Source: Candidatus Omnitrophota bacterium
GTDB lineage: Bacteria > Omnitrophota > Gorgyraeia > Zapsychrales > JANLHA01
Reading direction: 5' to 3'
Assembly: GCA_963662715.1 (NCBI GenBank)
Contig: OY759724.1
Span: forward strand, 1,562,662 to 1,626,661
DNA: 64,000 nucleotides
Under the pieces are notes generated by a model, which worked only from the letters and a program-made list of their open reading frames with translations, was not told the DNA's origin and did not search any database. Each line of letters opens with the position of its first letter. The first letter of the stretch is position 1. This document shows, one piece after another, positions 3,234-44,919 of the stretch. A program made the translations under genes and the position numbers.

Positions 3234-4451
3234 ATGAAGATGAAATTTATTTTATGTCTTGCCCTGATCCTCGGCGCTTTCCCCGTGGCTTCCGTGTCAG
3301 CGGAGGATGCGGATGACCTGCGGATAATGGTGAGCGGAAACGGGACTTTTGCTTTTGATCTTTATCAGGCCGTTAAGCACAGGGACGGGAATTTGTTTTT
3401 TTCTCCTTACAGTGTTTCCACCGCTCTTGCCATGACCTACGCCGGTGCGCGGGGAGAAACCGCAAAGGAGATGGCCGATGTGTTGTCTTTTTCGTTAGAG
3501 GAAGAATCTTTGCACGCATCATTTTCTCTGCTGCAGTCAAACCTCAACGCTATTCAGGATAAAGGTCATATTACGTTAAATGTCTCCAACTCTTTATGGG
3601 CGCAGGAAGGGTATTGTTTTCTGGACGACTTTATCGGTTTGAATAAAAAATATTACGGAGCAGGGTTGCGTGTCGTTGATTTTTTGAAGCACACCGAGGA
3701 GGCCCGCCAAACGATAAATGCCTGGGTGGAAGACGAAACCCGGCAGAAGATACAGGAACTGCTTAAACCCGGGATGCTTGATTCCTTCACGACATTGGTC
3801 CTCTGCAATGCCGTTTATTTTAAAGGGGATTGGCTGACGCAGTTTGACAAGCAAAAAACAAAGGATGCTGATTTTTTTGTTTCTGCTGACAATGTCATTG
3901 AAGTGCCGACGATGAATCAGGAGTTGAAATTGCCGTATAAGGATTTTGACGGTTTCAGCGCCATATCTCTTCCGTATCAAGGCCGGGATCTGTCCATGAT
4001 CATTCTCCTGCCGGAAGAGAAGGACGGCTTAGCAGGGCTGGAAAAGAATTTGATTTATAATAATGTGAAAGGCTGGATAGATGGCCTCGCGGAAGCGGAG
4101 GAGGCGGACGTGCTGGTGAGTCTTCCTAAGTTTAAAACCACATCCGAGTTTGATTTGTCCAAGGTCCTTTCTGACCTGGGTATGCCGCATGCGTTTAGGG
4201 AGGCGGATTTTTCAGGGATGACCGGAAAAAAAGACCTGTTTATCAGCCGGGTGGTTCATAAAGCTTTCGTGGATGTCAACGAGGAAGGAACGGAAGCCGC
4301 TGCCGCAACGGCTGTCGTCATGACACGGACCGCGGTCATGAGCCCGCCGCGGGTGTTCCGTGCCGACCATCCTTTCCTGTTTTTGATCCGAGATAATCAA
4401 TCCGGATCGATTTTGTTTGTCGGGAGGATTGCGGATCCGCGCCGGACATAG
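3234..4451 (+). CDS. serpin (serine protease inhibitor) with signal peptide
   Basis: Signal peptide present. 'FFSPYSVSTALAMTYAGARGETAKEM', 'NAVYFKGDW' and C-terminal 'PFLFLIRDNQSGSILFVGR' are canonical serpin signatures. Reactive-centre-loop region '...GTEAAAATAVVMTRTAVMSPP'. Confidence 0.85.
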   Translation: MKMKFILCLALILGAFPVASVSAEDADDLRIMVSGNGTFAFDLYQAVKHRDGNLFFSPYSVSTALAMTYAGARGETAKEMADVLSFSLEEESLHASFSLLQSNLNAIQDKGHITLNVSNSLWAQEGYCFLDDFIGLNKKYYGAGLRVVDFLKHTEEARQTINAWVEDETRQKIQELLKPGMLDSFTTLVLCNAVYFKGDWLTQFDKQKTKDADFFVSADNVIEVPTMNQELKLPYKDFDGFSAISLPYQGRDLSMIILLPEEKDGLAGLEKNLIYNNVKGWIDGLAEAEEADVLVSLPKFKTTSEFDLSKVLSDLGMPHAFREADFSGMTGKKDLFISRVVHKAFVDVNEEGTEAAAATAVVMTRTAVMSPPRVFRADHPFLFLIRDNQSGSILFVGRIADPRRT

Positions 4452-15141: not shown

Positions 15142-15426
15142 ATGAAATTCCGAAGACCATATAATCCAGGGAGATATAGCCATTTGTACATCCATCACAT
15201 GCTTTATTTCCCCCGGACGAATACGGTTCTCGCTGCTGCCCGGGACAGCTTAACCGGAAAGATGTACTTGTTTATGGTGAGAAGAGAGCAAAAAAACGTA
15301 TATCTGCGGAACGCGCTTCAGGATATCTGGGAAGCCGTAACGGATAAAAATGAGTATCGGAGCATTCTGCAGCTTATGAACAAGGCCTTGGCCGGCAGGA
15401 AAGCCCTCGTCATTATTTGTAATTGA
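15142..15426 (+). CDS. small hypothetical protein
   Basis: 94-aa ORF. Weak support. Confidence 0.2.
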   Translation: MKFRRPYNPGRYSHLYIHHMLYFPRTNTVLAAARDSLTGKMYLFMVRREQKNVYLRNALQDIWEAVTDKNEYRSILQLMNKALAGRKALVIICN

Positions 15427-15506
15427 CCGTTGTTTTATTCTATCAGCTTGTTGAAGCTGTTCAATTGTTTAAGTGTCGGGAAAACCTTACTCAAGGAGGC
15501 GTTATT

Positions 15507-16559
15507 ATGATACGAAGAATCATGGCAAAGATTGCTGTTTGGGGAGCTGTTATTGGCCTTTTCTTTTCTCCCGCTGTTCACGCTGAACACCCGCGGGATA
15601 TCCGGGATTACATCCAGTCGCTGGAAGTCGGGGAGCCGGTTTACCATGATAACCTGACGATCATTCCTGTTTATTCAGCTCATATCCAGGACCGCAGGGA
15701 TTACACGACGCTGGATGATGCCCTGGCCAGCAATTGGCTTAGTGTTACGGAAATAGGACAGGGAGGTCAGGTGCCGCAGGTTGAACTCAACAATTACTCG
15801 AACAGAACGATTTTTATTATGGGCGGGGAGATTATTTCCGGAGGCAAACAGGACAGGATTATCGGCCGGGAGGTCCTTTTAAGCCCGAGAGCGCGTCGTG
15901 TTGTCGTTCCGGTCTATTGCGTCGAACAAAACCGCTGGCAGTATCAATCAGAAAAATTTTATAGTAAACAGAATCTGGGAACGTGGAATTTGAGATCAAC
16001 CGCTCAATATGCTCCGGTCGGCGCCCAGTCCGCCATCTGGGGCAATATCGAAACAGCGCAGAGGGAAATGGGCGTCCGTTCCAGCACCAATGCCTACCAG
16101 GATACGTATGATCAAAAAGGCGTCCGCGATAAAATCGTGAAACATGAACGGCATTTCAGCCGTATCCCGCAGCTGCGCCGCGATACGGTCGGAGTCGTCG
16201 TCGGCGTGGGAGGCCGCATCGTTAATGCCGACCTTTTCGCAAATCCGGCGCTGTTTCAGAAATTATGGCCTAAAATACTGAAATCATCGGCTTTGGCGGC
16301 CATCGGGTCTAGAAGGAGCGGTAGCGTAAGCCAGGAAGATGCGGCCTGGTTTATCCGCAGACTTTATGACACGTCTTATCAGAGGAAATCGGCTGTTGAT
16401 CTGGGGGCGGAATTTTCCGCTTACGAAGGCAGCAATGTTAATGTCATCGTTTGCCGGAATGCCGTCATTCATCTGTCGGCATTCTTGGATGAGACCGGCA
16501 CGGAGTATGTTCCTGTCAGAAGAGATACCGAACGGAGAATCCCTGTGATGAGAAGGTAA
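15507..16559 (+). CDS. secreted hypothetical protein
   Basis: AAGGAGG ribosome-binding site before the ATG at 15507. Signal peptide ..FFSPAVHA. 350 aa, beta-rich. No family recognised. Confidence 0.5.
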   Translation: MIRRIMAKIAVWGAVIGLFFSPAVHAEHPRDIRDYIQSLEVGEPVYHDNLTIIPVYSAHIQDRRDYTTLDDALASNWLSVTEIGQGGQVPQVELNNYSNRTIFIMGGEIISGGKQDRIIGREVLLSPRARRVVVPVYCVEQNRWQYQSEKFYSKQNLGTWNLRSTAQYAPVGAQSAIWGNIETAQREMGVRSSTNAYQDTYDQKGVRDKIVKHERHFSRIPQLRRDTVGVVVGVGGRIVNADLFANPALFQKLWPKILKSSALAAIGSRRSGSVSQEDAAWFIRRLYDTSYQRKSAVDLGAEFSAYEGSNVNVIVCRNAVIHLSAFLDETGTEYVPVRRDTERRIPVMRR

Positions 16560-19280: not shown

Positions 19281-20750
19281 TCAGCGGCTCTGTTGTTTTT
19301 GCAGATTCTGGTCGTAAACGGACGTCTGATACCCCTGCTGTGCCGCCGCCGGGCTGTTGAGCGACGGCCCGCTGTTATATGACGCATCCAGATAATACGG
19401 TTCATACTGATTTGTTTTTTGTATCCAGCTGGAATTTTTCATCGATTTCCGCTGATACTTTGTCATGCGCTGCCTTTCATTTATTTCTTTGGCGAATTGT
19501 TTGTTGCCCTGAGCTTCGCTTAACAGTTTAGGATCATTATCACATATTTGGGCTAGCTTTTCTAGTTCGGCCCCCTGCTTTTTAAGAAGGGAACTCGCTT
19601 CCTGGTATTGCCCTTTATCGGCCAGTTCGATGGCCTGGTCCTTTATTTCCGCTGTGCGTGTTAACGCCACATCCCGGAGGATGTCCTTGTTCTGGGCCCG
19701 CAGTACCGTATGCGTGTTATTGTCGTATTGGATCGTGACGGTCCGTCTTTCCGTATATGTTTTCTTGCTGTAAGGATCAACGTAGTCGATTTGAACACGC
19801 GCGATTTCCATGGTGGCTCCCGGTCTTTGCGGCGGGACCCGCACTTCAAATAAAGCATATTTTTCGTTAAGCCCGTAAAGGTTGGGGATGCTGAGCTGCA
19901 TGGCGTTGCGGGAAACCGTTCCTTCCCGGCCGATCGTTTTTAAGGGGATGACTCCCCGCGGACAATGAACCCGGATATTGATCGCTTTAGCCGTCAGCGT
20001 CATGGCCTCGCCGACTTCCTGAGCAAAGATCTGCGGAAGTTCATCGCTGTTTTGTGCAAAATAAGAATTGCCGCCGCTCTTCTGAGCCAACGCCGTCATG
20101 AGGTCTTCATTGTAATCCAGCCCCACACCTACCGTGGAGACATTGATCCCGTCCCGGTCAAGGGACCCTCCCAGGTAGGAGAGCTCTTCTGTCGACTGGG
20201 GCCCCACATTCGCGAGACCGTCAGACAGCAAGATGATTCTGTTTATAAAATCTTCATTGAGATTCCGCTGCAGTTCCCGGGCCCCCAGAGTCAGTCCGCC
20301 GTAGAGCGCGGTTGATCCGCCGGAGCGGATTCCTGAAATGGCACGGATGAAAGTGTCTTTGTTCTTTAAGGGGCGGGCGGAAAGCAGGACATGAGGCGCT
20401 GAATCGTAAACGACGAGAGAAACGATATCTTCCCGGTTCAGCCGGTTGATGATTTCAATCGCGGCGCTTTTGGCATTCTCCATTTTGTTTTGACTTCCCA
20501 TGGATCCCGATTTATCCAGAACAATGGCTAAGTTAAAGGGCAATCTTTCCCTTTGCCGGTCCGGCTGCAGGGCCTCGAGAGCGACTTTGATAACCACCTG
20601 ATCGTCTCTTCCGGCAAGGACAAGGGGTTTGTCGGTTTCCGTTGATATCCTGATCTGTGTCGTCGGTGTGTTATGCGCTGCCAGAGGCAGGGGCTGGTAA
20701 ATCAAAGCTGTCGTAATAACAAAAAGGATGGTGAGGGGCGTTTTTTTCAT
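19281..20750 (-). CDS. secreted von Willebrand factor A (vWA) domain protein
   Basis: Start chosen at MKKTPLT, with GGAGGA 5 nt upstream. Signal peptide present. MIDAS motif 'LDKSGSMGS'. The C-terminal third is a Q/K-rich, likely coiled-coil, region. Confidence 0.75.
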   Translation of the reverse strand: MKKTPLTILFVITTALIYQPLPLAAHNTPTTQIRISTETDKPLVLAGRDDQVVIKVALEALQPDRQRERLPFNLAIVLDKSGSMGSQNKMENAKSAAIEIINRLNREDIVSLVVYDSAPHVLLSARPLKNKDTFIRAISGIRSGGSTALYGGLTLGARELQRNLNEDFINRIILLSDGLANVGPQSTEELSYLGGSLDRDGINVSTVGVGLDYNEDLMTALAQKSGGNSYFAQNSDELPQIFAQEVGEAMTLTAKAINIRVHCPRGVIPLKTIGREGTVSRNAMQLSIPNLYGLNEKYALFEVRVPPQRPGATMEIARVQIDYVDPYSKKTYTERRTVTIQYDNNTHTVLRAQNKDILRDVALTRTAEIKDQAIELADKGQYQEASSLLKKQGAELEKLAQICDNDPKLLSEAQGNKQFAKEINERQRMTKYQRKSMKNSSWIQKTNQYEPYYLDASYNSGPSLNSPAAAQQGYQTSVYDQNLQKQQSR

Positions 20751-21155
20751 CTGGTCCTCCATGGAAATGGGTTGATTTTTAGGGAACGGCCGGTCTATCC
20801 GGGCCCCTTTATCCTGAAATCAGGTCCTGTCCTGATGCCTTTTTCGCAAGAAGAGCTGCGTTCATGTTTTAATTGTGACATGTTATGGCCGTGCCGTTGT
20901 CAGTCGGGAGTAAAAATAATGTAAAAGAAATGTAAAAAGATGGGACGGCTGTTTAACGTTTTTCGGGGGGTGCTGATGTGAGAAAATTTCTTTAAGATGT
21001 CTTTTAATTGGTTTCGTAGGGTTCCTGATTTATGTTATACTACCGATATTGTAGAATAAAACATGAGGTTGTTTTTGAACATGTTATGGAAAAATAGCCG
21101 TGGAAGGCCCCCAGGGGCCTGCGGGAAGGGACTTTTTTAAGGAAAGGGAGACGTT

Positions 21156-37681: not shown

Positions 37682-38707
37682 ATGAAAAAATATATCTGGA
37701 TGATATGTCTTTTGATCTTGGGAGTTCCTTTGCGGCCGGCATTTTGTCAGGAGGAGGACACGTCATATGCCGCCGATGACGGTGGCGGGGGGGCGAAAGT
37801 CTGGCAGGAATCTGTGGGATCATTAAGAAGACAAACCGAAGCCTTGCTGGACCGTAACAGGGAATTAAACGGAGAATATACATCCTTGCAGGAAAAAATC
37901 ACGAATATTCAGATTAACATGAAGCAGATGAAAATCGATATTGAGAATTACCGTCAGGAAAATAAACAGTTGCAGGAGGCCCAGGAAAAGAATGCCCGGG
38001 AACAGAGAGAACTGGAAAAAAAGTTTTTGCAGGATCAGAAAGTTATTGAGCCCTTGGAGACACAAAATTCCGATTTAAAAAAGGAATGGATGGACGTCAA
38101 AAAGGAGACGGAGAAATGGCGGGAACGCGTTGCGGACCTTGAGCAGGAAAAACAGGAGTTGATCAGACAATTAAAAATGCGGGAAGAGTCTAAGGACGAT
38201 ATGTCGGGGGCCTTGGATGATGAGATAAAAAAATTGGACAGTATTTTAGCAGGCTATGAAGACGAAGAAGCGCTTTTGGATCTGGAGAAGCAGTCGTATG
38301 ACAAAGAAGAGGAAGAAATCGCCCGCATTAATGCCATGTTGGAAGGAGATATTGAAGATCTTGAATCTGAAGGGGATCAGCTGAAAGCTGAGATATCCGG
38401 GCAGAAAGAAGAGATCGCTCAAATCAAGCAGCCTAAAAAAGATGTCCGGATTTCTCCGGAAATGATTAAAGAGAAGAAAAGGCTTGAGGCTCATCTCGGT
38501 CAGTTGGAAAGTCAGCTGGAATCGATCAAAAAATCCGTAGAGGAAACGTCTTTGATTTTGGAAAAGAAACGCGCCTTGATGGATAAAATTATGGCCATAG
38601 ATTCTGAGAACCGTGAATTAAGGGCGCAGGTCTCGGATTTAATGGATCAATTAAAAGACCTGAAACAGGAATCCCCTTCTGCGGATGCTGATCCTGACGT
38701 GAAGTGA
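37682..38707 (+). CDS. secreted coiled-coil protein
   Basis: Signal peptide, then about 300 aa of E/K/Q/L-rich heptad-like sequence. Confidence 0.5.
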   Translation: MKKYIWMICLLILGVPLRPAFCQEEDTSYAADDGGGGAKVWQESVGSLRRQTEALLDRNRELNGEYTSLQEKITNIQINMKQMKIDIENYRQENKQLQEAQEKNAREQRELEKKFLQDQKVIEPLETQNSDLKKEWMDVKKETEKWRERVADLEQEKQELIRQLKMREESKDDMSGALDDEIKKLDSILAGYEDEEALLDLEKQSYDKEEEEIARINAMLEGDIEDLESEGDQLKAEISGQKEEIAQIKQPKKDVRISPEMIKEKKRLEAHLGQLESQLESIKKSVEETSLILEKKRALMDKIMAIDSENRELRAQVSDLMDQLKDLKQESPSADADPDVK

Positions 38708-40561: not shown

Positions 40562-40972
40562 TTGTGGGAGATAGCTGTTATGGCGCAAAGTCAGAACGAT
40601 GATTTGGATTTTCAGATCGCTTTTTATGAAGGGATCCTGGAAAAAAGTCAGGATTTCCTGCAGGCCCTTATGGCGCTGGGAGACCTTTATACGAAAAAAG
40701 GATTGTACGAAAAAGGCTTGAACGTCGACCAGAAATTAGCCGAGATCCGGCCCAAGGACCCGTTAGTGCTTTATAACCTCGCTTGCAGTTACTCATTGCT
40801 GGGACAGGTGGATTTGGCTTATCAAGCCATGAAGCGCGCGCTGGCCTGCGGTTATAATGATTTTGAATATTTGCTTCAGGATAAAGACCTTGCCAATCTT
40901 CTCGCTGATAAGCGTTTTCAGCAGGTGCTTGCCCGGGCCAGAGGGCAGTCCATGTCTCACGATAAAAAATAA
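40562..40972 (+). CDS. TPR-repeat protein
   Basis: About three TPR-like repeats ('ALMALGDLYTKKGLYEKG', 'LYNLACSYSLLGQVDLA'). Confidence 0.5.
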   Translation: MWEIAVMAQSQNDDLDFQIAFYEGILEKSQDFLQALMALGDLYTKKGLYEKGLNVDQKLAEIRPKDPLVLYNLACSYSLLGQVDLAYQAMKRALACGYNDFEYLLQDKDLANLLADKRFQQVLARARGQSMSHDKK

Positions 40973-40973
40973 T

Positions 40974-42098
40974 ATGACACATTCGGAAGATCAGGGACAA
41001 CGATACCATCAGGTTAAGAATCAGCTGTTGTATTTGACCATAGGGATGGATGTCGTGCTGTTGGTCCTTTGGGTGACGACAGGTCTTTCTGTCTGGCTGG
41101 CTCAAATGGCGCAGAGATTCTTTCCCTCGGTATGGATGATAAATGCTGTTTATCTGGCAGGGTTTCAGCTGGCTTTTTCCGCTGTCCATTTCCCTTTTGA
41201 TTTTTTTCTTGATTATTACTGGGAGCATCGATTCGGTTTGTCCCGTCAGTCATTATCGCAGTGGCTGAAAGATGTGGCGAAGAAATTTTTGTTGAGTTTC
41301 GTGTTCATCCTGGTCTTTGTTGAAGCCGTTTATTTCTTCCTGAGGCATTTTGCCCCTGTCTGGTGGGTGCTGGCCGCGGGGTTTTGGCTCTTGGCCTCTT
41401 TATTCCTGGCGCGTATACTGCCGCAGGTCATCATCCCTTTGTTTTATAAATATATTGAAATCGAAAACCCGTCACTTAAGGAACGGCTGATGTCTCTTTT
41501 CCGGAAGTGTGCGGTTCCCCTGCAGGATATTTACGCGATCAATATGTCGGAGAAAACCAAGAAAGCCAATGCTTTTATCTGCGGGATCGGCCGTAGCCGG
41601 CGGGTTGTCCTGAGCGATACATTGATAAATAATTTTTCTGAAGAACAGATCGAAACAGTCGTGGCCCATGAATTAGGACACCATAAGAAGAAACATCTTC
41701 TTAAACTCATCGCCGTTAATGCCCTCCTTACCTTTGTGGCCTTCTTTGTCGTTCATCATGTCCTTTCCTGGGGGCTGGGCCGCTGGGGGAATATTCCCCT
41801 TGCTGATATTGCCGGGTTCCCTCTTCTGGTTTTGACGCTTCTTTTGTTCGGTTTTGTGACGACGCCTTTGAGTAACGCCATAAGCCGCGCTTTTGAAATA
41901 GAGGCTGATCGTTTCAGCATGCAGCTAACTCAGGAAAAAGAGCATTTTATCTCCATGCTGCAGAAAATCGGCGAGTTAAACCTTGCCGAGGTCGCCCCCC
42001 ACTGGTTTAACGAAATGATGTTTCATGACCATCCTCCTTTGGAGAAAAGAATCAAACTTGCACAAGGGTATGATTATTCCCATGACAGGAACAGATAG
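40974..42098 (+). CDS. M48-family (Ste24/HtpX-like) zinc metalloprotease, membrane
   Basis: Start at MTHSEDQ, 1 nt after the TPR gene stop. Four or more TM helices. 'VVAHELGHHKKKH' is the HExxH site. Downstream 'EIEADRFS' matches the third zinc-ligand region. Confidence 0.75.
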   Translation: MTHSEDQGQRYHQVKNQLLYLTIGMDVVLLVLWVTTGLSVWLAQMAQRFFPSVWMINAVYLAGFQLAFSAVHFPFDFFLDYYWEHRFGLSRQSLSQWLKDVAKKFLLSFVFILVFVEAVYFFLRHFAPVWWVLAAGFWLLASLFLARILPQVIIPLFYKYIEIENPSLKERLMSLFRKCAVPLQDIYAINMSEKTKKANAFICGIGRSRRVVLSDTLINNFSEEQIETVVAHELGHHKKKHLLKLIAVNALLTFVAFFVVHHVLSWGLGRWGNIPLADIAGFPLLVLTLLLFGFVTTPLSNAISRAFEIEADRFSMQLTQEKEHFISMLQKIGELNLAEVAPHWFNEMMFHDHPPLEKRIKLAQGYDYSHDRNR

Positions 42099-44919
42099 TC
42101 TTCAATCAGGGGTAAGACTGCTCCTCATCTTTGCCTGGATGTTTTTGTCCGGAAGCCCGGCATCCGCCGGGCAGGCCCCCTCCTACAGGATCAGCGCGGA
42201 ACTGGACACGCAACAAAAGACACTTGCGGCAACAGAAGTGCTGTCTTGGCGGAATCCGGGGCCGTCTCCCGTTGATCATATGGTTCTGCATATTTACCCG
42301 AACCGCCGGTATTCACAGGAAGAACAGGATTTCATGTTCCGTTACGGAGGCTATTTTAAAATCAATCCCTATCCCGAGGGGTTCCCGGAGAAAACGATGG
42401 ATGTCATCAGTGTCCGTCAGCAGGGCCGGGGGCTTGATTATGAAATTTCAGGAGAAGAAGCAACTCTGCTGACGGTCAAATTGCCGCATCCCCTGAAGAA
42501 GGGCGAGACGGCGGAGGTTGAGATCAGGTTTAAATTATTCCTGCCGCATGCTTACGGCCGTTATGGCTGGCATGAGAATATCATTAAATTATCCCGGTGG
42601 TACCCTATTCTTGCGGTTTATGAAAAGGAAGGCTGGAACGAAAATCCCTTTTTCCCCTTTCACCGGCCTTTTTTCAGCGAAAGCTCTCTGTATGACGTTG
42701 AATTGACCGCTCCAGCGGACCAGGTGGTGATTCATACGGGGCGGAAAACCGGAGAAGAAAGGCTCGGGGCCGTAAAAAAATACCGCTTAAAGACAGACCT
42801 GCCTGTCCGGGAATTTACCCTGGCCTTAAGCGAAGATTATCTGCTTAAGGAAGACCGGTTCGGCGACGTGAGGATTAAATCCTATTATCTGCCCGGCGAT
42901 GAAGATGCGGCCCTTTTGGCTATCTCTGATGTGAAAGATTTGATGGGGTTTTATTCGGAGCTGTTCGGCCCGTCCCCTTATAAAGAGTTCAGCCTTGCTC
43001 CTGTTCATCTGGGCTACGGGGGAGAGCAGATGGGGCAGATGGCTTTTATAGATACGCGGGTTTACCGACTGCCGAAATTTCTCGACAAGTATTTTGATTT
43101 TCTGATATCGCATGAAACAGGGCATTTGTGGTTTTATAACTTGGTCGGCATGAACGAGTATACGCAGATGTGGTTGGAGGAAGGGACGAACGCTTATTTT
43201 AACAATGAATATCTTTATTCTAAATACGGGGAAGACGCCGATATCCTGACTTATCCGGACTGGTTTAACGGGGGCTCGGTGTTGCTGCCCAGGTTTACCT
43301 TCAAACAGACGAGGATGTTCCGTTACCTGATGCTCGAACGCAGCGGCTGGGACCATCCGGTCGTTGACAAATTGTCCAGTTTCCAAGAGCCCACGAGTAT
43401 TTTTTCCATTACCTACGGGAAAGGGTCCAGGATCGTGGGGATGCTGGAAGCCGTGATCGGCCCGGAGACCTTCCGTAAAGTTTTTCAGCGTATTTTTAAA
43501 GAGTACTGTTTTAAGAATTTAGAGCTGCAGGACTTTATCCGCATTTGTGAAGAAGAGAGCGGGCAGGACCTTTCCATGTTTTTCGAACAATGGCTTTATA
43601 AGGCCGGCCGGTATGATTATGCCGTTGCCGGGGTGTCAGGGCAAAACATTATTTTGAAGAATTTGGGGGATATTGAAATGCCGGCTCCTGTCAAAGTGAC
43701 TTTTGCGGACCAAAGCACCCGGACATTTATCTGGGACGGACAGCAGAAAGAACAGAGCATTCCTATGGAAGGCCCGGCCCCGATAGAACGCGTCAGCATC
43801 GATCCCGAAGAGACTTTACTGGATGTTGACAGGGTCGATAATCAATGGCCCAGAGCTTTCCACGTCAATGCTGTCCCGATTTATTGGGGACTTTACGATA
43901 TCCCGCTGTTTCTCCCGGAAGACGGCTATAATATTGTCATCGGGCCGGAATCGGCTAATTCCGGCCTGGGGCTCAAGGCATCCCTGCACCGTCCTTATGA
44001 CTGGGTTCTATATTCCGGAACAGATTATGAATTCGGCGAACAGCTTCTTCATTCCCGGCTGGGCTATCAATTAAAGAATGTCTTCCGTTCCCAAACGTCG
44101 GCCGGTTTTGAGTTGGCCAATACCCATGACTTTGATGACGGAGACGATGACCTGGCCAGCGGCAAGGTTTATCTGCGCCAGGAACTTTGGCCGGCGGCGT
44201 ATGGCGTGTTTAAGGATAATGATCACTGGACGCTTTATTTGATCCGGAACCAGCGGCTGGGGGATCGTCATGATGCCATCGTTAAGCAGGAAGAGGATCA
44301 GTATTTGGAATATTCCCGCCGTGAAGAAGCCATTGTGGGAGCCGTGCTGCATCTGGACCGCACCGGGCCTTATCCTGACCCGAGACAAGGCTGGGGTGCG
44401 CATGCTTTCCTGGAAAGTGCGGGGCATTTCCTGGGCGCGACCCAGTATTTTTACCGTTCCGGTTTTGACGTGCGGATCATCGAACCTGTCAGCCCGCAGA
44501 CCCGGCTGGCCCTGCGGGTCAAGTACGGCTGGGGTTATCCCCGGCATAAGGAACTTTTTCATTTGGGCGGGATGGACGGCCTGCGGGGATATCAACGAAA
44601 AGATGTGCGGGGCGCGAACATAATTCTGGGGAGCGCTGAATACCGGTTTCCTCTGCTTCCGTCTCTGGATATCTCGGTCGCCGACCATCTTTTCGGAATC
44701 GAGTCGTTAGGCGGCGTGATATTTTTTGACGCCGGTCAAAGCTGGATGGAGAATTTTTCAGACGCTGATTTCAAAAAAGATGTCGGGGCCGGCTTGAGGG
44801 TTCAGGTGAATATCGGATCCTTTCTGGAAAAGATCACCGTGCGTTTGGATGTGGCGCAGGCTTTGGGGGAACCCCAAGAGGACACAAGGTTCTGGTTCGG
44901 CCTGAATCATGCCTTCTGA
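42070..44919 (+). CDS. fusion of M1-family-like zincin domain and C-terminal Omp85/Bac_surface_Ag beta-barrel
   Basis: Signal peptide. 'HETGHLWFYNLVGMNEYTQMWLEEGTNAY' is HExxH-x18-E as in M1 aminopeptidases. C-terminal 300 aa 'LFHLGGMDGLRGYQ...SAEYRFPL...GGVIFFDAG...GAGLRVQ...FWFGLNHAF' carries the Omp85 barrel signatures and a terminal Phe. Overlaps the M48 gene by 16-29 nt. Confidence 0.65.
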   Translation: MIIPMTGTDSLQSGVRLLLIFAWMFLSGSPASAGQAPSYRISAELDTQQKTLAATEVLSWRNPGPSPVDHMVLHIYPNRRYSQEEQDFMFRYGGYFKINPYPEGFPEKTMDVISVRQQGRGLDYEISGEEATLLTVKLPHPLKKGETAEVEIRFKLFLPHAYGRYGWHENIIKLSRWYPILAVYEKEGWNENPFFPFHRPFFSESSLYDVELTAPADQVVIHTGRKTGEERLGAVKKYRLKTDLPVREFTLALSEDYLLKEDRFGDVRIKSYYLPGDEDAALLAISDVKDLMGFYSELFGPSPYKEFSLAPVHLGYGGEQMGQMAFIDTRVYRLPKFLDKYFDFLISHETGHLWFYNLVGMNEYTQMWLEEGTNAYFNNEYLYSKYGEDADILTYPDWFNGGSVLLPRFTFKQTRMFRYLMLERSGWDHPVVDKLSSFQEPTSIFSITYGKGSRIVGMLEAVIGPETFRKVFQRIFKEYCFKNLELQDFIRICEEESGQDLSMFFEQWLYKAGRYDYAVAGVSGQNIILKNLGDIEMPAPVKVTFADQSTRTFIWDGQQKEQSIPMEGPAPIERVSIDPEETLLDVDRVDNQWPRAFHVNAVPIYWGLYDIPLFLPEDGYNIVIGPESANSGLGLKASLHRPYDWVLYSGTDYEFGEQLLHSRLGYQLKNVFRSQTSAGFELANTHDFDDGDDDLASGKVYLRQELWPAAYGVFKDNDHWTLYLIRNQRLGDRHDAIVKQEEDQYLEYSRREEAIVGAVLHLDRTGPYPDPRQGWGAHAFLESAGHFLGATQYFYRSGFDVRIIEPVSPQTRLALRVKYGWGYPRHKELFHLGGMDGLRGYQRKDVRGANIILGSAEYRFPLLPSLDISVADHLFGIESLGGVIFFDAGQSWMENFSDADFKKDVGAGLRVQVNIGSFLEKITVRLDVAQALGEPQEDTRFWFGLNHAF

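Follow-up and report, generated by a model that had tools for sequence, protein, structure and literature searches.

The window, a 64,000-nucleotide stretch of contig OY759724.1 from a Candidatus Omnitrophota bacterium, carries three consecutive plus-strand genes that belong to a long run of unrelated housekeeping genes, all on this strand. The first (positions 40562–40972) encodes a small protein of 136 aa, which matches several Pfam TPR families and has no signal peptide, and its stop codon lies 1 nt ahead of the start of a gene for a 374-aa Ste24-like M48 membrane zinc protease (40974–42098; HELGH at nt 41667–41681). The M48 protein scores above the Pfam cut-offs for both Peptidase_M48_N (PF16491, 78.3 bits) and Peptidase_M48 (PF01435, 120.9 bits) and displays several hydrophobic segments in a hydropathy scan; the scores of the NCBIfam HtpX and BepA models all fell far under their cut-offs (for BepA, 11.6 bits vs 570). 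The third gene, M1-Omp85, lies in a maximal ORF of 964 aa (42025–44919), and both this frame and that of the M48 gene are as delineated in the initial annotation. The database copy of the protein (P0001) starts at TTG 42058, yielding 953 aa, and ATG codons at 42070 and 42082 provide further possible starts; here, we describe the gene from ATG 42070 (42070–44919, 949 aa). Every candidate start (42025, 42058, 42070, or 42082) overlaps the M48 gene, which ends with TAG at 42096–42098, by 17 to 74 nt depending on the start codon, the overlap for ATG 42070 being 42070–42098.

The approximately 950-aa M1-Omp85 protein is composed of a signal peptide, M1 domains I to III, a 42-residue linker, and a 16-strand Omp85 barrel, in this order. 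Searches of the large ORF against Pfam yielded Peptidase_M1 (PF01433, 81 bits, cut-off 27.7) and Omp85 (PF01103, 58 bits, cut-off 24). The full-length AlphaFold model (pLDDT 91.4, pTM 0.90) is predicted, on the strength of its pTM, to be rigid across domains. The Sec signal peptide (42070–42168), read from the sequence, comprises a charged n-region extending to R16, the hydrophobic stretch LLLIFAWMFLSG, and a cleavage site between SPASA and GQ, and is modelled as a helix (residues 13–26) with low pLDDT.

Domain I, the N-terminal beta domain (residues 38–273, 42181–42888), was delineated from AlphaFold secondary structure, and ERAP1, IRAP, F3, and PSA, matched by Foldseek and by profile search, align across it. 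The catalytic thermolysin-like domain II (residues 278–509, 42901–43596), to which the PF01433 match corresponds, contains GG-EQ, a variant of the GAMEN motif (nt 43018–43029), the HETGH-x18-E zinc site (nt 43111–43182), and the catalytic Tyr in TYGKG (nt 43411–43425). Among 82 homologous sequences with 48–65% identity, no variation occurs at H348, E349, H352, E371, Y449, K451, G452, G318, and Q320, and E319 is kept in at least 90%; in the HMMER alignment, GG-EQ falls opposite GAMEN of glutamyl aminopeptidase and PSA. Since the catalytic residues are invariant in Omnitrophota, catalysis is under selection, and the module of domains I to III is, as judged from its sequence, catalytically intact. 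The equivalent of domain III is a small six-strand beta-sandwich (residues 517–577, 43618–43800) recognized in the secondary structure of two models; at a mean top-residue frequency of 0.48, no other domain is less conserved. In M1 enzymes, the active site is normally capped, and the substrate chamber closed, by a helical domain IV; M1-Omp85 lacks this domain and has the barrel after domain III instead. The zincin assignment made in the initial annotation was borne out by HMM searches (Pfam, NCBIfam, and PDB profiles), with M1 aminopeptidases as the only matches in the PDB profile search, and by Foldseek, which aligned ERAP1, IRAP, and F3 over about 580–600 columns.

The linker (residues 578–619, 43801–43926, DPEETLLDVDRVDNQWPR...VPIYWGLYDIPLFLPEDG) was recognized by its conservation, which equals that of the catalytic domain (0.71 vs 0.70), and in the AlphaFold model, where it has a pLDDT of 91–96 and only one 5-residue strand and one 4-residue helix. 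The barrel (residues 620–949, 43927–44916), with 16 strands in two models, includes loop L6 with LRGY (nt 44581–44592), located between beta11 and beta12 in the AlphaFold model, the FxDxG lid-lock motif FFDAG in beta13 (nt 44722–44736), and the C-terminal NHAF (nt 44905–44916). Across the 82 homologues, F885, G889, and the terminal F949 never vary, and R839, G840, and D887 hardly do. The top Foldseek match of the C-terminal model was the TamA barrel 4n74 (E = 1.4e-10), followed by other TamA structures and BamA. Conservation is only slightly higher in the periplasmic turns than in the extracellular loops (0.65 vs 0.59). Most of the latter are short (L1–L3, L5, L7, and L8 span 2–9 residues), which would leave the barrel with a smaller dome than BamA has. 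No POTRA family matched the large ORF in Pfam at E ≤ 0.1, and in the AlphaFold secondary structure nothing from the M1 module to the barrel has the order beta-alpha-alpha-beta-beta, the region ahead of the barrel being the domain III beta-sandwich and the linker. Thus, the signal peptide, the M1 zincin with HExxH-x18-E, the Phe-terminated Omp85 barrel, and the lack of POTRA repeats, all originally proposed from the sequence, hold, and an M1 zinc aminopeptidase occupies the usual place of POTRA domains ahead of a BamA/TamA-type barrel.

The same architecture occurs in other genomes. We found it in at least 288 proteins, with PF01433 and PF01103 both present in all 120 homologues listed, and relatives are encoded by at least 104 species-level genomes, of which the named ones are nearly all Omnitrophota. 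Planctomycetota have related active forms, which carry the same linker motif, and the forms in Nitrospirota are catalytically dead; other superfamily members have, at the N-terminal position, either a dead M1 module or a TolB-like PD40 propeller. The M1-Omp85 family is therefore real and vertically kept. A literature search returned no paper on this architecture, and M1-Omp85 is a genuine, conserved, previously unstudied outer-membrane protein of Omnitrophota.

The gene neighborhood was compared across 80 fetched loci, 71 of which had enough upstream sequence for the M48 gene to be sought. It lies directly upstream of M1-Omp85 in 10 of the 71; in 12 further loci, it is 2–4.5 kb away, with an unrelated PilZ-domain gene and in some cases an equally unrelated endonuclease III-like (Nth-like) gene in between, and it was not found in the fetched flank of the remaining ones, nor beside the Planctomycetota and Nitrospirota relatives. 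The distance between the two genes in the ten adjacent loci ranges from −46 to +87 nt, indicating that the overlap is not conserved. A TPR gene is present upstream of M1-Omp85 in 50 of the 80 related loci, adjoining it in 24 of them, and immediately precedes M48 in 21 of 22 M48-bearing loci; in P0034 and L030, TPR and the M1-Omp85 precursor form a single in-frame fusion. Although the three genes are probably co-transcribed at the present locus, the overlap with M48 owes most to how the genes happen to be ordered locally. The adjacency is incidental in the present lineage, and M48 is no obligatory partner. Accordingly, of the translational coupling of two proteases suggested earlier, the overlap itself stands, whereas their functional coupling does not. 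A dedicated two-protease operon is likewise unsupported by the compared loci.

As for function, we give about even odds to M1-Omp85 being an outer-membrane-anchored zinc aminopeptidase on an Omp85 scaffold, docked at the periplasmic face of its own barrel. The precursor would cross the inner membrane via Sec, the cell's BAM machinery would insert the barrel, and the barrel rim together with the linker may take up the space left by domain IV. Peptides or unfolded polypeptides reaching the inner face of the outer membrane would lose N-terminal residues to the enzyme, the candidate substrates being nutrient peptides and outer-membrane or secretory proteins that have stalled. In every solved Omp85 structure known to us, beta1 begins at the periplasmic face and L6 is located between beta11 and beta12; given the same position of L6 in M1-Omp85, the M1 module most likely sits at the periplasmic mouth of its own barrel. 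Canonical Omp85 topology thus favours a periplasmic peptidase, a placement read from topology rules only, and the relatives with a PD40 or dead M1 module fit a periplasmic substrate-handling role of the N-terminal module. We note that a 16-strand barrel with intact lid-lock motifs would be a costly device for anchoring alone. The intact lid-lock barrel hints at a dynamic role. It has also been observed that the N-terminal enzyme on the Omp85-type barrel of PlpD and FplA can be surface-exposed (PMC6555100).

Such a location would be reached if the barrel moved its own M1 module to the surface in a type V-like manner, for display or release. This POTRA-less analogue of PlpD and FplA, the self-exported surface protease suggested earlier, would supply a small Omnitrophota cell that scavenges nutrients or depends on a host by breaking down peptides outside it, a possibility to which we assign roughly half the weight of the periplasmic enzyme. 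The retained functional Omp85 motifs suggest more than a passive anchor, and the 42-residue linker could by its length span the barrel lumen, although it is predicted to lack a pore-spanning helix. However, M1-Omp85 has no POTRA, unlike all described type Vd proteins, and type V export of a passenger like its own, a zinc enzyme with three domains and about 545 residues, has no precedent known to us; moreover, the catalytically dead relatives sit poorly with a nutritional surface peptidase. The order of enzyme, linker, and 16-strand Omp85-type barrel is that of type Vd proteins, yet the characterised type Vd passengers are all lipases (PMC6555100). Both topologies are weighed for enzyme-Omp85 fusions by Heinz and Lithgow (PMC4104836).

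We regard as unlikely a peptidase-coupled peptide channel, the protease-gated transporter of the initial annotation, in which oligopeptides emerging from an open or gated barrel pore would be trimmed by the docked M1 module, uptake being coupled to hydrolysis. The rigidity of the model across domains (pTM 0.90), the barrel following directly on domain III in place of domain IV, and the short extracellular loops with a smaller dome than in BamA would suit this arrangement. Nevertheless, an open pore is without support, the lid-lock motifs holding L6 in the lumen are conserved, dead-peptidase relatives exist, and the barrels in the solved structures of BamA and TamA are shut towards the outside, according to Heinz and Lithgow (PMC4104836). 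Still more doubtful is that M1-Omp85 is the general or a specialised outer-membrane protein insertase of the phylum, with the M1-like module performing the substrate binding of POTRA domains and peptidase activity being secondary and lost in the Nitrospirota forms. The barrel is nearest to TamA and BamA, the lid-lock motifs are conserved, and the pseudo-peptidase members keep the module without catalysis; on the other hand, the BamA model TIGR03303 reaches only 32 bits vs a cut-off of 297, and the catalytic residues are invariant in Omnitrophota. BamA is near-universal in two-membrane bacteria, and a canonical BamA is therefore expected in the M1-Omp85 genomes. Sam50 does function without its POTRA domain, as cited in PMC4104836. 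Finally, that a sequencing or assembly error joined two genes, one for a secreted M1 peptidase and the other for an Omp85 lacking POTRA, is hardly conceivable and was rejected, because the architecture is uninterrupted in at least 288 proteins of independent assemblies and in the 80 fetched loci, and the junction is conserved across phyla and modelled with high confidence.

Several known systems resemble M1-Omp85 in part. The type Vd proteins PlpD of Pseudomonas aeruginosa and FplA of Fusobacterium nucleatum likewise combine Sec export, an N-terminal hydrolase, and a C-terminal 16-strand Omp85-type barrel. Their passenger, however, is a patatin-like lipase rather than an M1 zinc peptidase, one POTRA separates it from the barrel, whereas M1-Omp85 has none, and their surface exposure has been shown, whereas M1-Omp85 is known here from sequence and model. 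With BamA and TamA, M1-Omp85 shares 16 strands, the (V/I)RG(Y/F) motif of L6, FxDxG in beta13, and the C-terminal aromatic residue, but it has an enzyme in place of POTRA domains and much shorter extracellular loops, and no TamB-like neighbour was seen beside it. The M1 aminopeptidases ERAP1, IRAP, tricorn factor F3, PSA, and PepN have in common with it domains I to III, HExxH-x18-E, the catalytic Tyr, and the exopeptidase-motif Glu; GAMEN is changed to GG-EQ by a one-residue deletion and an N-to-Q replacement, and a membrane barrel stands where they have the helical domain IV. Presumably, about 17 extra residues separate the third zinc ligand from the catalytic Tyr relative to E. coli PepN.

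The concept of a non-POTRA N-terminal region on an Omp85 barrel is shared with the subfamilies 'Metallo' (PF00149-Omp85), 'WD40-Omp85', and 'noNterm' described in the main text of Heinz and Lithgow 2014, where periplasmic quality control and an exported enzyme are posed as alternatives, and in which the words 'peptidase' and 'aminopeptidase' are absent (PMC4104836). As described there, the 'Metallo' domain is PF00149 rather than an M1 zincin, and 'noNterm' proteins have no N-terminal extension, in contrast to the about 585 residues ahead of the M1-Omp85 barrel. [quoted passage not shown] BepA unites M48 and TPR domains, and the M1-Omp85 locus has M48 and TPR genes alongside; however, the M48 protein encoded alongside is Ste24-like and spans the membrane as a polytopic protein, and the TPR protein lacks a signal peptide. 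Whereas BepA is an M48 endoprotease that exists as a separate, soluble periplasmic protein, M1-Omp85 is an M1 aminopeptidase covalently fused to its barrel. If the periplasmic placement is correct, M1-Omp85 would be the covalent equivalent of BepA in its position under BamA.

In the window, M1-Omp85, the protein in which an M1 aminopeptidase module is fused to an Omp85 barrel, is encoded by a large ORF of 964 aa (42025-44919, + strand), the third of three tightly packed genes on the same strand. It follows the genes for a small TPR protein (40562-40972, +) and a 374-aa M48 protease (40974-42098, +), the latter starting 1 nt past the TPR stop codon. Four candidate starts are available for M1-Omp85 (ATG 42025, TTG 42058, ATG 42070, and ATG 42082), of which TTG 42058 is used in the database copy, P0001, and from all four the gene overlaps the M48 stop codon (42096-42098). 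Residues are numbered here from ATG 42070; adding 15 gives the numbering of the 964-aa ORF. Scans for promoters and terminators returned counts near those expected from shuffled sequence.

An AlphaFold2 prediction built on an alignment of 82 homologues with 48-65% identity (mean pLDDT 91.4, pTM 0.90) divides M1-Omp85 into an N-terminal signal-peptide helix with the cleavage motif SPASA/GQ (cut between A and G), an M1 domain I (residues 38-273), a catalytic domain of the thermolysin-like type (278-509), a beta-sandwich of six strands (517-577), a linker of 42 residues (578-619) whose sole secondary structure is a strand of 5 residues and a helix of 4, and a 16-strand barrel (620-945). Pfam recognizes Peptidase_M1 (PF01433, 81 bits versus a cut-off of 27.7) and Omp85 (PF01103, 58.1 bits versus a cut-off of 24) and, at E <= 0.1, nothing besides these two.

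A profile search of the PDB with M1-Omp85 matched M1 aminopeptidases alone (best E 1.3e-24), and Foldseek against the PDB returned ERAP1, IRAP, ERAP2, and tricorn factor F3 (E ~1e-26, 575-610 columns). Because these alignments take in the first ~580-600 residues of M1-Omp85, the beta-sandwich corresponds to M1 domain III; the helical domain IV of these enzymes is missing. The zinc motif HETGH-x18-E lies at nt 43111-43182, and none of the 82 homologues departs from the zinc ligands H348, H352, and E371, the catalytic E349, or Y449-x-K451-G452, which includes the catalytic Tyr within TYGKG. In HMMER alignments, Y449 falls on the Y-x-KG of glutamyl aminopeptidase and puromycin-sensitive aminopeptidase (PSA), and a GG-EQ motif falls on the GAMEN of the same two enzymes, with the Met deleted, the amine-binding Glu retained, and the Asn replaced by Gln; G318 and Q320 never vary among the 82 homologues, at least 90% of which retain E319. 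By sequence and predicted fold, M1-Omp85 belongs to the M1 family, with GG-EQ as a variant form of the exopeptidase motif.

Omp85 proteins form the core of outer-membrane biogenesis and type V secretion, and their N-terminal POTRA domains are thought to handle substrate. The barrel of M1-Omp85 carries an Omp85 signature composed of LRGY in L6 (strands 11-12), FFDAG on strand 13, and a C-terminal NHAF, with F885, G889, and F949 invariant and R839, G840, and D887 nearly invariant among the 82 homologues. The L6 and strand-13 sequences represent the Omp85 lid-lock motifs, defined, in part after PMC4490367, as (V/I)RG(Y/F) in L6 and (F/G)xDxG on beta13. In a second AlphaFold model, covering residues 500-949 (pLDDT 88), the best Foldseek matches were TamA structures, led by the 4n74 barrel (E 1.4e-10), and BamA, and both models have 16 strands with L6 between beta11 and beta12. 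The initial annotation had remarked on the lack of recognizable POTRA repeats, an observation borne out by Pfam, in which no POTRA family matched M1-Omp85 at E <= 0.1. Residues 517-619 form, in both models, six beta strands followed by a short strand and a helix, and not the beta-alpha-alpha-beta-beta fold; since such a unit occurs nowhere in either model, the structure prediction suggested as a check for cryptic POTRA domains is negative. POTRA domains aside, M1-Omp85 passes as a member of the Omp85 superfamily. Conservation of the linker matches that of the catalytic domain (mean top-residue frequency 0.71 versus 0.70), and domain III is the least conserved part (0.48). Both the M1 module and the barrel look functional from their conserved residues.

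The family is large. A word-indexed protein search returned at least 288 homologues of M1-Omp85, and PF01433 and PF01103 occur together in 120 out of 120 homologues among the matches listed. Named homologues belong to Candidatus Omnitrophota/Omnitrophica and appear under the name 'M1 family aminopeptidase' or under 'BamA/TamA family outer membrane protein', labels that each cover half of the protein. Across GTDB, with one genome scanned for each species, 104 genomes encode a relative, and of the 80 loci that we fetched, those named to phylum are all from Omnitrophota, bar one labelled Deltaproteobacteria. Many ENA bins titled 'uncultured Planctomycetales' or 'Planctomycetia' (L002, L008-L013, and ~25 other loci) display the Omnitrophota gene order and 45-62% identity to the window protein, and their taxon labels therefore look like placeholders.

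With the C-terminal 420 residues as query, an exhaustive HMMER search yielded 603 matches, and checking those of at least 600 aa with local HMMs and Pfam resolved four superfamily groups. The Omnitrophota type (914-961 aa; named members from Omnitrophota) and a set of longer forms (980-1060 aa; named members from Gemmataceae/Planctomycetota) both have an intact active site. They also have in common the linker motif DP...D...NN.W...LY..., which argues that the peptidase-barrel junction is old and arose once. The additional length of the Planctomycetota relatives resides in domain III and the barrel loops; with the linker-to-barrel junction unchanged and no POTRA-sized insert between linker and barrel, a cryptic POTRA in these proteins was rejected. 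The third group (820-915 aa; named members from Nitrospirota) is a sister group of dead forms, in which the M1-like module has lost both zinc-binding His and the catalytic Tyr, and domain III, the linker, and the barrel are the same as in the active forms; these pseudo-peptidases include P0161, P0172, P0179, P0182, P0188, P0189, P0193, P0229, and P0244. Members of the fourth group (908-1035 aa), which no source names, combine, in this order, Peptidase_MA_2, a PD40 propeller, and Omp85, and represent another zincin-Omp85 architecture (P0194, P0197, P0199, and P0235). This group probably equates to the 'WD40-Omp85' subfamily of Heinz and Lithgow 2014, whose section on that subfamily describes the WD40 propeller alone (PMC4104836). 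No extra domains that would show localization were found in the relatives.

The product of the gene upstream of M1-Omp85 contains Peptidase_M48_N (PF16491, 78.3 bits) and Peptidase_M48 (PF01435, 120.9 bits), both above the Pfam cut-offs, HELGH at residue 232, and several hydrophobic segments, and is a Ste24-like polytopic membrane zinc protease. It is neither HtpX nor BepA, because the corresponding NCBIfam models all score far under their cut-offs (60.7 bits for the best HtpX model versus 341, and 11.6 bits for BepA versus 570). To place this gene in context, proteins neighboring M1-Omp85 in the window were compared with the 80 loci by tblastn and all locus ORFs were clustered; the counts for M48 cover the 71 loci with an upstream flank of 1.5 kb or more. 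M48 stands directly upstream of M1-Omp85 in 10 of these, at a distance of -46 to +87 nt, and 2-4.5 kb upstream in another 12, with a PilZ-domain gene (~650 aa) and sometimes also an endonuclease-III-like gene in between. The remaining loci have no M48 within the fetched flank, and none is found near the Planctomycetota and Nitrospirota homologues, whose genes stand alone. A dedicated operon of M48 and M1-Omp85 is rejected on these counts. Rather, the neighborhood is a conserved syntenic one-strand array and not a protease operon: its commonest order in the phylum starts with a transglutaminase-like gene, continues with the optional TPR and M48 genes, and ends with PilZ, Nth, and M1-Omp85, and housekeeping genes (AsnC, aminotransferase, UPF0047, PfkB, and Era) flank the block.

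The most persistent upstream neighbor of M1-Omp85 is the small TPR protein, which has no signal peptide and occurs in 50 of the 80 loci. TPR and M48 are adjacent in 21 of the 22 M48-bearing loci and TPR directly adjoins M1-Omp85 in 24 loci, so that TPR-M48 and TPR-M1-Omp85 are tighter pairs than M48-M1-Omp85. In two independent assemblies (P0034 and L030, 3086-3560), TPR and the M1-Omp85 precursor form a single reading frame, in which TPR precedes the signal peptide with no intervening stop codon. The TPR protein may act in the cytoplasm as a partner or chaperone, either of the M1-Omp85 precursor or of M48. In the window genome, the three genes probably share a transcript, and their translation may be coupled through the overlap. 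The initial annotation had read the overlap as translational coupling of two proteases; a functional partnership between them is unsupported, given the scarcity of adjacent M48 genes.

The PilZ-domain protein (~650-680 aa) and the endonuclease-III-like gene lie between M48 and M1-Omp85 in many Omnitrophota (e.g., L017 3909-5915; L048 2873-4864; L079 3359-5392 and 5352-6008); the large protein has no confident Pfam match beyond PilZ, which is itself undetected in L079. In more distant Omnitrophota loci, M1-Omp85 is directly followed by genes for an M20/M25/M40 peptidase and a PAC2-family protein (L035 8778-9902 and 9938-10909, and 21 other loci). A secreted, coiled-coil-like Glu/Lys-rich protein with a signal peptide (37682-38707, +) is encoded upstream of the AsnC and aminotransferase genes, a position conserved in ~26 related loci. 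Elsewhere, the window encodes a full-length bacterial serpin (3234-4451, +; PF00079, E 4e-125), an ARPP-1 domain protein (15423-16559, +; PF20208, E 1e-69), and, near the latter and on the opposite strand, a VWA-domain protein beside a histidine kinase (19281-20762, -).

L6 of M1-Omp85 has the same position as in BamA, between strands 11 and 12, and strand 1 would therefore begin at the periplasmic face. With this topology, the N-terminal M1 module would most simply be periplasmic and docked on the mouth of its own barrel, which would lie where domain IV normally caps the active site. The barrel would be inserted by the BAM machinery of the cell, and the M1 module would work at the inner face of the outer membrane, shortening peptides or unfolded polypeptides from their N-termini. 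The linker is predicted to be rigid. Mean conservation is 0.65 for the periplasmic turns versus 0.59 for the extracellular loops, a difference too small to point to a docking face. The main rival to this arrangement, less likely but still plausible, is self-export, whereby the barrel would display the M1 module on the surface of the cell in the manner of the type Vd proteins PlpD and FplA (PMC6555100). The barrel and the domain order match between type Vd proteins and M1-Omp85, but nothing else does: PlpD and FplA possess a POTRA domain and lipase passengers, M1-Omp85 has neither, and no pore-spanning helix is apparent in its modeled linker.

We consider it unlikely that the M1 module functionally replaces POTRA, be it in the POTRA-less self-export of a 60-kDa peptidase or in a threading-and-trimming device. 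In the latter case, polypeptides at the barrel lumen or lateral gate would be fed N-terminus-first into the aminopeptidase; the same reading would embrace the superfamily in Omnitrophota, Planctomycetota, and Nitrospirota, with the dead-enzyme forms keeping a binding role. Should its self-export version be true, it would constitute a new subclass of type V secretion, in which a zinc peptidase is exported without POTRA. A large family kept across a whole phylum, with an intact aminopeptidase in place of POTRA, is a natural experiment on POTRA-less barrels, and the dead-enzyme relatives of Nitrospirota offer a built-in comparison separating catalysis from binding. The family may also show how the very small, uncultured Omnitrophota process peptides or police their outer membrane.

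POTRA-less fusions of enzymes to Omp85 are already known; in the literature that we searched, no account of an M1 aminopeptidase fused to an Omp85 barrel was found, and the word 'peptidase' is absent from the main text of Heinz and Lithgow 2014 (PMC4104836). Where that paper deals with the 'Metallo' proteins, PF00149-Omp85 fusions, it poses the same either-or question of a periplasmic versus an exported domain (PMC4104836). M1-Omp85 fits none of the known types compared. The BamA model TIGR03303 gives it 32.4 bits versus a cut-off of 297.15, and the five POTRA of BamA are missing. TamA has three POTRA and a TamB partner, whereas M1-Omp85 has no POTRA, and no TamB-like gene is present among the annotated neighbors in the window and the 80 loci, where most flanking ORFs were only clustered. 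A barrel HMM detected no second Omp85 in the 80 loci. 'Metallo' proteins have a PF00149 N-terminal domain, for which M1-Omp85 gives no match, and 'noNterm' proteins have zero N-terminal extension, in contrast to the ~585 residues of M1 module and linker here. Type Vd proteins couple a patatin-like lipase passenger to a single POTRA in front of a 16-strand barrel, unlike M1-Omp85 with its M1 peptidase. In mechanistic terms, the nearest precedent for M1-Omp85 is BepA.
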